Virus record (IMG/VR): IMGVR_UViG_2693429774_000011
Source: a virus
Lineage: Duplodnaviria > Heunggongvirae > Uroviricota > Caudoviricetes
Reading direction: 5' to 3' (one strand)
DNA: 40,169 nucleotides
In this document: in pieces, positions 3,043 to 7,798 of the stretch
Numbering within the stretch: the first letter of the stretch is position 1
Layout: each line of letters begins with the position of its first letter
Notes under the pieces: model-generated
Database searches by the model: none
The model's input: only the letters and a program-made list of their open reading frames with translations
What the model was told of the DNA's origin: nothing
Program-made: the position numbers and the translations under genes

Positions 3043-3816
3043 ATGGATATTACTGAGTTTCCTTCTGGAGTAATTGAACACCTTGGCTGGTATGTATACC
3101 GATTGATTGATCCGAGGGACGGAAGCACCTTCTATGTAGGGAAAGGCAAAGGTAACCGCGTATTTGCCCATATGCGCGGTGAAGTGGCAGCGACTGATGA
3201 TGACGAGTTACTGAGCAACAAGCTAAAGCAAATTAGAGAAATAAGGTTAGCAGGACTTGAGGTTATCCATGTCATCCATCGACACGGAATGACTGATGAA
3301 AAGACGGCGTACGAAGTCGAAGCAGCACTTATTGATGCCTACCCTGGGTTAACGAATATCATGAATGGTGCTGGCAGCAATGAATTCGGCGCCGCGCATG
3401 TCAAAGAGTTGATAGCAACATATCAACCCGAAACCATAACATTTCATCATAAAGCATTAATGATTTCCGTTAACAGAAGTGCAAAGGATTCAGAGCTTTA
3501 TGATGCGGTTCGATTTAGCTGGCGCATTAATGTCTCTCGCGCCAGCCAAGCAGAAGTCATTCTTGCTACTGTAAGGGGGATCGTTCGAGGGGTTTTCATT
3601 GCTGATAAATGGCTCAAATCAACACGTGAAAATTTCCCTACGATGAAATACTGGGACGAGGATCCGGACTTTGAGGCAACACAAAGTTCTCGCTATGGTT
3701 TTGAAGGTCGAGAAGCCCCACCTGAAATAGCAAATCTTTATCTTGGAAAAAAAATACCAGATGAATTAAGAAAAAAAGGAGCTATGTCCCCGGTCCGTTA
3801 CTCACCTAATTTTTGA
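3043..3816 (+). CDS. GIY-YIG nuclease-domain protein (candidate defence or selfish nuclease)
   Basis: first ATG of the ORF; N-terminal WYVYRL...[14 protein letters not shown]...YEVEAAL...NIMNG fits GIY / YIG / Arg / Glu / Asn spacing; unknown C-terminal domain; last 37 codons identical to the C-terminus of the tail-fibre ORF 7049-7798. Confidence 0.6.
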
Positions 3817-4500
3817 GTCTTTAAGTGATAAGCATAAACCGCAGCACGATCTTCTTGCATACGACGTGCTACGGTTTCATTTATCTCCGACCGGAAACTT
3901 CTTATACAGTGTCGATATACCAACATCATAGATGATCGCCACCTTTTGGCGAGGAACGCCTGATGCAATTAATCGCCCGGCCTGCGCCCATTGTTCTGGT
4001 GTAAGTTTGGGACGACGTCCACCAATTCGTCCCTGTGCGCGAGTTGCTTCCAGTCCAGCTTTTGTTCGTTCAACAATCAGTTCACGCTCCATTTCAGCCA
4101 GGGCACCCATCACATGAAAGAAAAAGCGCCCCATTGGGGTACTGGTATCAATTGAATCCGTCAGACTACGAAAGTTGATGCCTCGTTCGCGCAACTCCTC
4201 CACCAGCACGACAAGATGCCGCATACTGCGCCCCAGTCGGTCCAGTTTCCAGACCACCAGCGTGTCACCTGCCGATAATGTCCTGAGCAGCTTTTTCAGT
4301 CCTGGTCTGTCGGACTTTGTACCGCTTATCTTGTCTTCAAAAATCAGCTCACATCCTGCACACTCCAGCGCATTACGCTGTAATTCCGTATTCTGGTTAT
4401 TTGTTGATACGCGGACATAGCCAATAAGCATGAGCATTCCCCTGAGTAAAAACCGGGGATGATGCCAGTTAGCCATAATCTCTGCATTTTCTTAAACGTT
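3702..4500. repeat. inverted-repeat unit A, copy 1 (37-codon tail + spacer + invertase gene + leader + crossover half-site)
   Basis: reverse complement recurs at 6365-7163 (mapping x to 10865-x); identical 199-aa translations and spot-checked flanks. Confidence 0.8.
3877..4431 (-). CDS. serine DNA invertase, Gin/Pin/Cin/Hin family, copy A
   Basis: 184 aa from MLIGYVRVSTNNQNT..., catalytic Ser in YVRVS, C-terminal HTH; the ORF-track N-terminal extension MANWHHPRFLLRG is read-through of the leader. Confidence 0.9.
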   Translation of the reverse strand: MLIGYVRVSTNNQNTELQRNALECAGCELIFEDKISGTKSDRPGLKKLLRTLSAGDTLVVWKLDRLGRSMRHLVVLVEELRERGINFRSLTDSIDTSTPMGRFFFHVMGALAEMERELIVERTKAGLEATRAQGRIGGRRPKLTPEQWAQAGRLIASGVPRQKVAIIYDVGISTLYKKFPVGDK

Positions 4501-5133
4501 GGTTTGAGAGAAGGTTCATTTGGGTTCAGAAATCTGGTTGCCTTCACAACGGCTGGAGTAACAAGCTGGACTGTTCCTGAAGAGTTGCGCAAAGGAAGAA
4601 AATGTTACGTCAAAGTTATTGGTGGCGGTGCGTCAGGAGGGATAGGTTCAACAACCGCTTCAGCCGTTACATGTGGCGGAGGAGGTGGTGGGGGCGGAGT
4701 TGCTGAGGGGCTGGTAGATTTAACTGGTATAAACAGTGTTTCGATTACGGTTGGTACCGGTGGTGCGCCTGTGTCTGGTATTTCTGTAAACGGTAAAAAT
4801 GGTGGCTCGAGCAGTTTCGGGACTTACATGTCAGCTTCCGGAGGCTATAGCGGAGGCCAGCCTTCCGGAGGGTTAGGCGCAGTTGGTGTCGGGGGAACAA
4901 TTAATACATCGCTTGGGCCAGGTTCTCCAGGTTCCATTGCTTCTGCCGCATCGGGAGCTGGTAATGGTGGTTCTGGTGGTGGCCCCGGAGGAGCAGGTTC
5001 ATTCAGAGATACAGCTAACGGAAAAGCGGTATCAGCAGTTGGGCCTGGAGGTGGCGGAGCTGGATTATGTCCTAATTCATCAACGGGTCAGTCGGGTGCC
5101 GGAGCAGATGGCGCAGTTTATATTTACTGGTGA
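4459..5133 (+). CDS. tail-fibre variable C-terminal cassette, Gly-rich type, currently not joined to the constant fibre N-terminus
   Basis: first 14 codons are read-through of the invertase leader and site; real cassette starts at the crossover (about 4501); Gly-rich fibre-tip sequence ending ...GADGAVYIYW. Confidence 0.6.
   Translation: MMPVSHNLCIFLNVGLREGSFGFRNLVAFTTAGVTSWTVPEELRKGRKCYVKVIGGGASGGIGSTTASAVTCGGGGGGGGVAEGLVDLTGINSVSITVGTGGAPVSGISVNGKNGGSSSFGTYMSASGGYSGGQPSGGLGAVGVGGTINTSLGPGSPGSIASAASGAGNGGSGGGPGGAGSFRDTANGKAVSAVGPGGGGAGLCPNSSTGQSGAGADGAVYIYW
4487..4512 (+). promoter_or_regulatory. invertase crossover site s1 (hix/gix-like, 12-2-12)
   Basis: TTTTCTTAAACG-TT-GGTTTGAGAGAA; sequence identity with the other copies switches exactly at the central dinucleotide. 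Confidence 0.75.
4499..4844. repeat. inverted-repeat unit B, copy 1 (site right half + first 113 codons of the Gly-rich cassette)
   Basis: reverse complement recurs at 7164-7509 (mapping x to 12008-x); encoded 113 aa identical in both ORFs. Confidence 0.8.
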
Positions 5134-6406: not shown

Positions 6407-7163
6407 CCCCGGTTTTTACTCAGGGGAATGCTCATGCTTATTGGCTATGTCCGCGTATCAACAAATAACCAGAATACGGAATTACAGCGTAATGCGCTGG
6501 AGTGTGCAGGATGTGAGCTGATTTTTGAAGACAAGATAAGCGGTACAAAGTCCGACAGACCAGGACTGAAAAAGCTGCTCAGGACATTATCGGCAGGTGA
6601 CACGCTGGTGGTCTGGAAACTGGACCGACTGGGGCGCAGTATGCGGCATCTTGTCGTGCTGGTGGAGGAGTTGCGCGAACGAGGCATCAACTTTCGTAGT
6701 CTGACGGATTCAATTGATACCAGTACCCCAATGGGGCGCTTTTTCTTTCATGTGATGGGTGCCCTGGCTGAAATGGAGCGTGAACTGATTGTTGAACGAA
6801 CAAAAGCTGGACTGGAAGCAACTCGCGCACAGGGACGAATTGGTGGACGTCGTCCCAAACTTACACCAGAACAATGGGCGCAGGCCGGGCGATTAATTGC
6901 ATCAGGCGTTCCTCGCCAAAAGGTGGCGATCATCTATGATGTTGGTATATCGACACTGTATAAGAAGTTTCCGGTCGGAGATAAATGAAACCGTAGCACG
7001 TCGTATGCAAGAAGATCGTGCTGCGGTTTATGCTTATCACTTAAAGACTCAAAAATTAGGTGAGTAACGGACCGGGGACATAGCTCCTTTTTTTCTTAAT
7101 TCATCTGGTATTTTTTTTCCAAGATAAAGATTTGCTATTTCAGGTGGGGCTTCTCGACCTTCA
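6365..7163. repeat. inverted-repeat unit A, copy 2
   Basis: reverse complement of 3702-4500. Confidence 0.8.
6434..6988 (+). CDS. serine DNA invertase, copy B (identical translation to copy A)
   Basis: 184 aa; GGGG RBS 7 nt upstream of the ATG. Confidence 0.9.
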   Translation: MLIGYVRVSTNNQNTELQRNALECAGCELIFEDKISGTKSDRPGLKKLLRTLSAGDTLVVWKLDRLGRSMRHLVVLVEELRERGINFRSLTDSIDTSTPMGRFFFHVMGALAEMERELIVERTKAGLEATRAQGRIGGRRPKLTPEQWAQAGRLIASGVPRQKVAIIYDVGISTLYKKFPVGDK

Positions 7164-7798
7164 CCTCCGGAAGCTGACATGTAAGTCCCGAAACTGCTCG
7201 AGCCACCATTTTTACCGTTTACAGAAATACCAGACACAGGCGCACCACCGGTACCAACCGTAATCGAAACACTGTTTATACCAGTTAAATCTACCAGCCC
7301 CTCAGCAACTCCGCCCCCACCACCTCCTCCGCCACATGTAACGGCTGAAGCGGTTGTTGAACCTATCCCTCCTGACGCACCGCCACCAATAACTTTGACG
7401 TAACATTTTCTTCCTTTGCGCAACTCTTCAGGAACAGTCCAGCTTGTTACTCCAGCCGTTGTGAAGGCAACCAGATTTCTGAACCCAAATGAACCTTCTC
7501 TCAAACCAAGGTTTTCGAGAGCCGTTTGCACAGTGCCATCCGATTTGATATCGCCAAACGGATTCTTGCGGCTTAACAGCAGCGCGCGAAGTGCGGTAAG
7601 TAACTGGTCGTGCCGCCCCTTCTCCAGGCTGGCACCGGATGCCTCCACCACGCTGCAAAGTTCCTCCTGCAACATGTCAAAGTAGTCATCATCCAGATCG
7701 GTGGCAGGCGTGCCGGTCTGGGGGTTACCACGGGTAAAACCGTTCTTACCCGCGCCGAACTTATCCTTCTGCGCGGTTTTCGTGTCTATACGATGCAT
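7049..7798 (-). CDS. tail fibre protein as currently assembled (constant N-terminus + Gly-rich block + 37-aa tail)
   Basis: 249 aa; N-terminal 98 aa constant part, then s3, then unit B, joined in frame at 7163/7164 to the tail ...[37 protein letters not shown]. Confidence 0.7.
7164..7509. repeat. inverted-repeat unit B, copy 2
   Basis: reverse complement of 4499-4844. Confidence 0.8.
7496..7521 (+). promoter_or_regulatory. invertase crossover site s3, at the constant/variable boundary of the fibre gene
   Basis: TTCTCTCAAACC-AA-GGTTTTCGAGAG, the best palindrome of the three; resembles hix/gix consensus ...GAAAACC-AA-GGTTTT... Confidence 0.75.

Follow-up and report, generated by a model that had tools for sequence, protein, structure and literature searches.

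A three-site, two-invertase tail-fiber switch on an Escherichia coli prophage contig is very probably a draft-assembly chimera of two orientations of an e14-type PinE switch

Introduction

A prophage region of Escherichia coli presents a tail-fiber locus with three crossover sites and two copies of a serine invertase gene, which raises the question of whether it is a new kind of fiber switch or a composite of a known one. The window analyzed here comprises the last 40,169 nt of contig CYDV01000012.1 in the NCBI draft assembly GCA_001284905.2; a literature search for CYDV01 gave no paper on this assembly. A sequence-only reading of the window had described a tail-fiber inversion switch of unusual composition, and offered three possible explanations: a new shufflon-like architecture, a recombination scar, or a chimera assembled from a population of mixed inversion state. 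Mixtures of this kind are documented: in wild-type K-12 cultures, inversion of the e14 P segment amounts to about 30% (PMC12529663), and whole-genome sequencing of clonal cultures shows the two inversion states side by side (PMC4272514).

Results

As the sequence-only reading proposed, a tail-fiber inversion switch is present, which combines a serine invertase of the Gin/Pin type, sites resembling hix/gix and alternative tip cassettes (Table 1). Two identical invertase ORFs of 184 residues were found, at 3877-4431 on the minus strand and at 6434-6988 on the plus strand. The encoded protein possesses an N-terminal Resolvase domain (E 4e-51) and a C-terminal HTH_7 domain (E 5e-13; both from Pfam), which is the domain composition of a small serine recombinase, and matches the Gin structures 3uj3 and 4m6f with an E-value of about 1e-93. 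It shares 183 of 184 residues (99%) with the PinE annotated in the closed E. coli genome NZ_CP145657.1. Both copies carry the allele A130T, a strain-private variant that occurs on no other contig in the protein collection. The LEM-3-like GIY-YIG gene beside the switch is annotated likewise in the closed genomes L001 and L003.

Table 1. Features of the tail-fiber switch region, in window coordinates
Feature	Position	Strand	Evidence or remark
LEM-3-like GIY-YIG gene beside the switch	3043-3816	+	Pfam PF22945, E 2e-14
pinE-type serine DNA invertase, 184 aa, genuine copy outside the invertible segment	3877-4431	-	Pfam, Gin structures, PinE identity
s1, invertase-side half / Gly-tip half	4487-4512	-	core TT at 4499-4500
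Gly-rich variable tip cassette, StfP-type	4513-5133	+	Pfam Gly_rich_2, profile positions 1-225 of 226
Small ORF after the Gly-rich tip, 56 aa	5141-5311	+	no Pfam family
tfa of the collar-type tip (tail-fiber assembly protein)	5277-5885	-	Pfam Caudo_TAP, E 8e-32
Collar-domain variable tip cassette, StfE-type	5885-6350	-	Pfam Collar, E 1e-15
s2, collar-tip half / invertase-side half, state-2 junction	6353-6378	+	core AA at 6365-6366
Second copy: invertase gene and GIY-YIG tail	6367-7162	.	exact reverse complement of 3703-4498, 0 mismatches
"Joint"	7163	.	N in the public record, an unclosed scaffold join
Second copy: first part of the Gly-rich tip	7164-7507	.	exact reverse complement of 4501-4844, 0 mismatches
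s3, Gly-tip half / constant-part half, state-2 junction	7496-7521	+	core AA at 7508-7509
Tail-fiber constant N-terminal part, about 96 codons	7510-7798	-	ymfQ (Mu gp48-like) and baseplate J genes come next

The three 26-bp sites are located where they had been read, and are the sole matches to TTCTCNNAAACCAAGGTTTNNGAGAA in 40 kb at ≤3 mismatches, with 0 expected in shuffled sequences. Site s1 is inverted relative to both s2 and s3. The sites s1 and s2 are imperfect palindromes with TT and AA cores that bound the invertible segment, as in a two-site inversion system. They differ from each other at one position (4507/6358), which falls within the half-site on the side of the invertible segment, a minor correction to the earlier description. 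Compared to the K-12 e14 inverted repeat TTGGTTTGGGAGAAGG, s1 has one mismatch, whereas s2 contains the e14 repeat as CCTTCTCCCAAACCAA (6351-6366) (PMC12529663).

The segment excludes the constant N-terminal part of the fiber and encloses two tip cassettes, in opposed orientation, together with assembly genes. In orientation state 1, the collar tip meets the constant part (Sc), and the resulting 256-aa Sc+collar ORF is colinear with the tail-fiber gene of L001. The Gly-rich tip meets the constant part in orientation state 2 only; in-silico inversion yields an intact Sc+Gly ORF of 307 aa, which is colinear with L003. The small ORF that follows the Gly-rich tip may be its accessory or chaperone gene, an uncertain assignment that draws on its position, which resembles that of the second tfa in Gin/Pin segments.

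Further analysis of the repeats defined the duplicated unit precisely. The inverted repeat arms as called are 3702-4517/6348-7163 and 4494-4844/7164-7514, and the exact repeats pair 3702-4506 with 6359-7163 over 805 nt and 4499-4844 with 7164-7509 over 346 nt, matching the unit A of ~0.8 kb and the unit B of 346 bp in the sequence-only reading. The duplicated unit, 3702-4844, is 1143 nt long, and its second copy is inverted, with 0 mismatches, and permuted at the 2-bp core of the crossover site. The interval between s2 and s3, read as ~1.14 kb, likewise computes to 1143 nt.

The base at window position 7163, given as A in the window itself, is N in the public record (position 6636 of L002). 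It is the sole N within the 12,750 nt of CYDV01000012.1 examined, and its position coincides exactly with the ends of both repeat arms. The joint 7163/7164 is therefore not determined sequence, and nothing but this joint brings the third site and the second copy of the invertase together on one molecule. All features that had been described are present in the window at their coordinates, the circular permutation of the units in the second copy included; the exception is this joint, the basis of the entire architecture, which the record does not confirm. An N alone shows only that a junction was not sequenced, and does not by itself disprove a second copy.

A fusion ORF (7049-7798, minus strand; accession WP_072166228.1) runs across the joint and shares its 37-residue tail with the GIY-YIG ORF, the two C-termini being identical. 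The true single-copy source of these 37 codons is the GIY-YIG gene. The fusion ORF covers only positions 1-97 of the 226 in the Gly_rich_2 profile, and is in frame if N stands for exactly one base (GGN = Gly). A protein-to-contig lookup flagged the CYDV01000012.1 locus as not translating to the query fusion protein. The proposed expression of this truncated fusion as the fiber, with a silent canonical tip, is a property of the assembly and not of a molecule.

Two recombination routes to the joint were considered and rejected. No microhomology is present at 7163/7164, which rules out a microhomology-mediated junction. As to pseudo-site recombination, no hix/gix-like match was found near 3702 or 4844 at ≤3 mismatches, and the closest half-site-like motif, GGTTTT at 3697, would set the core 6 nt off the joint.

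Comparison with closed genomes showed which parts of the assembly belong to which orientation. The invertase|Gly junction represents state 1, and the collar|invertase and Gly|Sc junctions represent state 2, with the collar|Sc junction absent. Such a set of junctions cannot exist on one canonical molecule. Upon deletion of 6367-7509 (1143 nt, core to core), the locus is 99.95% colinear over 7681 nt with closed E. coli NZ_CP145657.1, in which the constant part is followed by the collar tip. The same deletion combined with inversion of 4499-6366 gives 99.86% colinearity over 8281 nt with closed E. coli NZ_CP101274.1, which has the constant part followed by the Gly-rich tip. Both of these genomes possess a single pinE and two sites. 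Each orientation exists in nature, with closed genomes, K-12 records included, matching either state; the collar|Sc junction is found in 516 closed genomes and the Gly|Sc junction, annotated as stfP, in 26.

The joint itself was found in none of 5426 closed E. coli genomes, in no GTDB species representative and in no phage record. In a collection of about 15 billion proteins, the fusion protein was found on no contig beyond CYDV01000012.1, and its sole cluster mate, P0002, is an StfP with a frameshift and lacks the GIY-YIG tail. These searches bear on an evolved, heritable, shufflon-like switch with three sites, two invertases and three fiber variants, which we regard as next to impossible. 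The assembled order formally has four inversion isomers and three fiber ends, so that the three variants proposed earlier are reachable on paper, and genuine three-site tail-fiber switches exist in E. coli prophages (PMC4272514). However, the third site is linked to s1 and s2 only through the N at 7163, and the closed relatives are two-site systems. The extra material is no distinct cassette, but an exact duplicate of 3702-4844 without any divergence, in which the "third cassette" is truncated to 97 of the 226 Gly-rich profile positions and continues into the tail of an unrelated gene. The nil recurrence in other genomes effectively refutes such a switch. Altogether, the N at the joint, flanks that are explained by two states of the canonical locus, the absence from other genomes and the restriction of the fusion protein to one contig leave the new architecture unsupported.

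The contig also has an unusual left flank. There, ycdU-IS3 abuts the prophage in an arrangement present in no closed genome, and 1.5 kb of NZ_CP145657.1 is missing. The contig crosses the 1.26-kb IS3 without any N, which indicates that the pipeline was able to resolve some repeats and argues against a chimera. The flank itself makes repeat-mediated misjoins between distant loci plausible in CYDV01000012.1, and would fit two near-identical copies of the prophage region, such as a complete prophage plus a remnant, that stood in different orientation states and were threaded into one contig. We consider this very unlikely, since the copies have no sequence difference, down to the strain-private A130T, the flanking genes have no second copy within the window, and an extra element is required where a mixed culture suffices.

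A real and very recent rearrangement also deserves consideration, although it is highly unlikely. It would consist of a 1143-bp tandem duplication of 3702-4844 by illegitimate recombination, giving a 4844|3702 junction, followed by two Pin inversions, one between the outer sites and then one between the first two sites. By derivation and isomer enumeration, these events give exactly the assembled order, and the inverted copies could not collapse by homologous recombination between direct repeats. The 100% identity of the copies is what a recent event predicts, and the one-base reading of N would keep the fusion in frame. However, the single position able to prove the duplication is the N, the joint shows no microhomology, the structure is a singleton against all the genomes and proteins searched, and both sides of the N are equally explained by two states of a single-copy locus. 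Moreover, duplications that arise spontaneously are infrequent and unstable, whereas a mixture of orientations is the usual state (PMC12529663, PMC4272514).

The three-site, two-invertase switch is thus very likely a draft-assembly chimera of two orientations of an e14-type PinE switch, because the junction that creates the architecture is an N in the public record. Once the suspect stretch is taken out, a known structure reappears, and the gap flanks fit the alternative state. This was one of the options left by the sequence-only reading, and the N together with the colinearity to closed genomes now supports it.

The real locus is very probably a conventional P segment of the e14 type, carried by an E. 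coli prophage whose baseplate is Mu-like. One PinE (3877-4431) would lie outside an invertible segment of ~1.87 kb (4499-6366) that is bounded by two inverted 26-bp sites and holds, in opposed orientations, the Gly-rich tip and the collar-type tip with its tfa; inversion would join either tip to the 96 constant codons. The sequenced culture probably held both orientations, and the draft assembly would have set the left end of the segment in state 1 (invertase|Gly), with a scaffold gap at the right end. One gap edge may then have been grown from state-2 reads, from the collar tip through the site and the invertase into the GIY-YIG tail, and the opposite edge from the constant part through the site into the Gly tip, so that a gap-filling or contig-extension step would have written the duplicated stretches. 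Accordingly interpreted, 6367-7162 is a gap edge extended by state-2 reads and no second locus, and 7164-7507 is the other edge extended in the same way. As the two extensions do not belong adjacent and never overlapped, they would have left a single N at 7163. That join would account for the extra invertase copy, the third site, the "circular permutation" and the fusion ORF that reads in frame.

The behavior of gap-closing programs is compatible with these steps. GapFiller may leave a lone N where it has over-filled a gap. It extends gap edges base by base, and closure needs overlapping extensions and a fitting size (PMC3446322); both SSPACE and GapFiller are greedy, and false joins are possible (PMC5320598). 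The 796-nt extension on one side, longer than short-read inserts typically are, would take many iterations, which speaks against a chimera.

Discussion

Nearly all cultures are mixed for the orientation of invertible segments, and short-read scaffolding with gap-closing can make such mixtures look like duplicated invertases, extra sites and in-frame fusion genes; the artefact fusions then receive protein accessions, here WP_072166228.1. There is a slim chance that this isolate carries a fresh tandem duplication of the 1143-bp pinE-site-tip unit, in which Pin inversions have left the second invertase copy inverted and "locked in", together with a third site that is functional. If so, the duplication would be a one-off intermediate, a snapshot of a two-site switch growing toward a multi-site, shufflon-like one. 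Even a real duplication would be of only moderate interest, because three-site fiber switches are already documented.

The assembled locus shares several hallmarks with artefacts of gap filling and contig extension (SSPACE, GapFiller, IMAGE), namely a residual N at the join, sequence duplicated on both sides of the gap, and extensions drawn from reads at odds with the assembled state. Among genuine multi-site systems, the P2-like prophage switch of EPEC, with three inverted repeats and four variants (PMC4272514), is formally similar, as the assembled window has three sites, four isomers and three fiber C-termini, the numbers also given for the EPEC locus. Real multi-site systems differ in having a distinct extra cassette for each extra site and one invertase, whereas the extra unit here is an exact duplicate attached via an N. 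The p15B Min system, for example, is a multi-site tail-fiber switch with one invertase and distinct cassettes.

The two-site switches of Mu (G segment/Gin), P1 (C segment/Cin) and Salmonella (Hin) likewise rely on a small serine recombinase with Resolvase and HTH_7 domains and on 26-bp imperfect palindromic sites with a 2-bp core, and inversion selects alternative fiber C-termini; the tip cassettes and the phage background of the present locus differ. Inversion by Gin, Hin and Cin depends on a recombinational enhancer that binds Fis and lies in or close to the invertase gene, and serine invertases have a bias against deletion between sites in direct repeat.

The closest relative is the e14 P segment (stfP/tfaP/tfaE/stfE), which has a near-identical PinE, the published inverted repeat CCTTCTCCCAAACCAA within the site, a constant fiber N-terminus next to ymfQ, and two opposed tip cassettes with tfa genes. 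They differ in that the LEM-3-like GIY-YIG gene adjoins pinE on the far side here, where K-12 has mcrA, and in that the present prophage has a full Mu-like baseplate/tail module. In addition, the segment spans 1868 nt core to core, compared to 1797 bp in K-12 (PMC12529663). None of these differences bears on the claimed novelty: the switch beneath the assembly, the e14/PinE P segment, has long been known, and the case is of little biological importance.

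Repeats, invertase genes and crossover sites of the assembled locus

A repeat search of the window reported two inverted repeats (3702-4517/6348-7163 and 4494-4844/7164-7514), and base-by-base comparison revealed exact arms of 805 and 346 nt that overlap by 8 nt at a crossover site. The contiguous unit 3702-4844 (1143 nt) occurs twice; the second copy, inverted and with 0 mismatches, is split within the crossover site at its 2-bp core, so that its two parts stand in swapped order. The sites s1, s2 and s3 are the only hix/gix-type consensus matches within the 40 kb (≤3 mismatches), and none is expected in shuffles.

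Features of the tail-fiber locus as assembled, with family assignments
Feature	Coordinates	Strand	Description	Family
Serine invertase ORF, copy 1	3877-4431	-	184 aa, identical to copy 2	Resolvase + HTH_7; Gin crystal structures at E about 1e-93
Serine invertase ORF, copy 2	6434-6988	+	184 aa, identical to copy 1	As copy 1
s1	4487-4512	-	TTCTCTCAAACC-AA-CGTTTAAGAAAA; half-sites invertase / Gly-rich tip	
s2	6353-6378	+	TTCTCCCAAACC-AA-CGTTTAAGAAAA; half-sites collar-type tip / invertase	
s3	7496-7521	+	TTCTCTCAAACC-AA-GGTTTTCGAGAG; half-sites Gly-rich tip / constant part	
Exact arms, 805 nt	3702-4506 / 6359-7163			
Exact arms, 346 nt	4499-4844 / 7164-7509			
Fusion ORF	7049-7798	-	Constant part + 113 Gly-rich-tip codons + final 37 GIY-YIG codons	
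ORF directly after Gly-rich tip	5141-5311	+	56 aa	No Pfam family matched
Collar-type tip				Collar
Gly-rich tip				Gly_rich_2
tfa				Caudo_TAP
Flanking gene				LEM-3-like GIY-YIG

The sequence-only reading, which described a switch with three sites and two invertases and listed a shufflon-like architecture as one possibility, was accurate at the level of letters, as the repeats, both invertase ORFs, the three sites and the fusion ORF are all present. Its claim that several fiber variants are reachable (three fiber ends, in four isomers by enumeration) holds for the assembled structure only. Deletion between direct sites is disfavored by Gin/Hin-family invertases, and the 1.14-kb circle that it predicted would therefore be rare.

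An ambiguous base at the joint

Exact look-up placed the fusion protein on one contig, CYDV01000012.1 (NCBI GCA_001284905.2; 141,166 nt), of which the window is the final 40,169 nt; the gene at this locus was flagged as not translating to the query fusion protein. Alignment of the contig locus (L002) with the window revealed a single difference over 10,952 nt: L002 position 6636 is 'n', corresponding to window 7163, the base at the 7163/7164 joint, where the window text reads 'A'. The window letter differs from the deposited record at the very position on which the three-site finding hinges. This N coincides exactly with the end of both repeat arms, and there is no other N among the 12,750 nt of L002 fetched. 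NCBI contig records retain N runs shorter than 10. A lone N where two stretches meet looks like a scaffold join that resisted closure, and the continuity needed for a new architecture was never sequenced. The N proves only that the junction is unsequenced, not that the second copy is absent. At the joint we found neither microhomology nor a hix/gix-like pseudo-site (≤3 mismatches).

Derived by hand, a real tandem duplication of 3702-4844 and two subsequent Pin inversions give exactly the assembled order; however, spontaneous duplications are rare compared to orientation mixtures and the N falls right on the joint, and for these reasons we regard such a duplication as improbable.

Searches for the joint and the fusion

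The joint is present in none of 5426 closed E. coli genomes, in which no match to a 200-nt probe centered on it exceeds half the probe length, and it was found neither among 100,044 GTDB species representatives nor in the phage records searched. Among about 15 billion proteins, the 90% cluster of the fusion protein has two members, the protein from CYDV01000012.1 and a frameshifted StfP that lacks the GIY-YIG tail. The fusion covers the Gly_rich_2 profile at positions 1-97 of 226 only. Both invertase copies share an allele (A130T against the common PinE, WP_000905124.1) that no other contig of the ~15-billion-protein collection carries (90% cluster of 1948 members). The absence of the joint elsewhere, its lack of microhomology and of a pseudo-site, the fusion on one contig, the private allele common to both copies and the truncated Gly-rich domain argue against a real, heritable architecture. 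We give an evolved three-site system next to no credence, and a collapse of two loci is very unlikely.

As a separate observation, the 99.6-kb Escherichia phage record ON470617.2 carries two annotated invertases, 'Hin1' and 'Hin2', near tail-fiber genes.

The locus in closed genomes

The best closed-genome match, E. coli NZ_CP145657.1, spans 4358 nt for a 5501-nt query, exactly 1143 nt shorter, and contains GIY-YIG, a single pinE, an invertible segment, the fiber gene, ymfQ and baseplate genes. Removal of 6367-7509 (s2 core to s3 core, 1143 nt) gave one colinear alignment of 7681 nt with this genome at 99.95%, in the state with the collar-type tip on the constant part (state 1; 256 aa). When 4499-6366 was inverted in addition to this removal, the window aligned colinearly in one piece with the closed genome NZ_CP101274.1, over 8281 nt and at 99.86%, in the state with the Gly-rich tip on the constant part (state 2; 307 aa in silico). 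The collar/constant junction occurs in 516 of the 5426 closed E. coli genomes, K-12 records among them, and the Gly-rich/constant junction in 26.

PGAP annotates stfP of NZ_CP101274.1 (5134-5440 of its locus, L003) as a pseudogene 'missing C-terminus', and the window placed in silico in that state encodes the constant part and Gly-rich tip as an intact ORF; annotation of the Gly-rich fiber form looks unreliable. The stretch matching the 56-aa ORF is annotated as a hypothetical protein of 115 aa in NZ_CP145657.1 and 67 aa in NZ_CP101274.1, and this ORF may be an accessory gene of the Gly-rich tip.

A probable chimera of two inversion states

On any one canonical molecule the junctions form one of two possible pairs, either invertase/Gly-rich with collar/constant or invertase/collar with Gly-rich/constant. 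The contig combines invertase/Gly-rich of the first pair with both junctions of the second, and lacks collar/constant. We conclude that the record is very probably a chimera, assembled from a population that contained both inversion states. This third alternative of the sequence-only reading is the best explanation, supported by the N at the joint, the colinearity after deletion and the mixed junction set; a new architecture is not supported, and against it stand the same N, the two-site, single-pinE locus of closed relatives and the lack of recurrence of the joint.

Orientation mixtures are normal in cultures. The P segment is inverted in about 30% of wild-type K-12 cells (PMC12529663), and whole-genome sequencing of clonal cultures found both states together (PMC4272514). 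The stretches meeting at the N are those that state-2 molecules carry beyond each site, one continuing from the collar-type tip through the site and the invertase to the GIY-YIG tail, and the other from the constant part through the site to the Gly-rich tip. A de Bruijn assembler alone would not output the 805-nt and 346-nt stretches twice, which points to a post-assembly extension step; whatever the software behind the record, a gap-filling step may have written the duplicated stretches. GapFiller extends edges base by base from reads and requires overlap and a fitting size for closure (PMC3446322), and SSPACE and GapFiller work greedily and can join sequences falsely, according to the authors of a widely used pipeline built on them (PMC5320598).

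The left end of the window

In window 1-2600, ycdU/ymdE and a complete IS3 (right end about 2585) directly adjoin the prophage flank, and no closed E. coli genome covers at least 80% of window 1-3700. In NZ_CP145657.1, the 1.5 kb preceding the same GIY-YIG flank contain an AraC-family regulator as well as an IS remnant that ends GTAGGATCA; further ahead an IS3 lies within an Ig-like (eaeH-type) gene near rclABC. The ycdU/ymdE-IS3 arrangement reflects either a second misjoin of the contig through repeats or a real IS3-mediated rearrangement.

Comparison with known inversion switches

The locus is an e14-type P segment with PinE: the window invertase is identical to annotated PinE at 183 of 184 residues, and the published inverted repeat of e14, CCTTCTCCCAAACCAA, lies within s2 (PMC12529663). 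The underlying switch is already known, and the claimed three-site, two-invertase feature is very probably not real. Even if true, a three-site switch would not be the first, as an EPEC P2-like prophage is already known to carry a fiber switch with three sites and four variants (PMC4272514).
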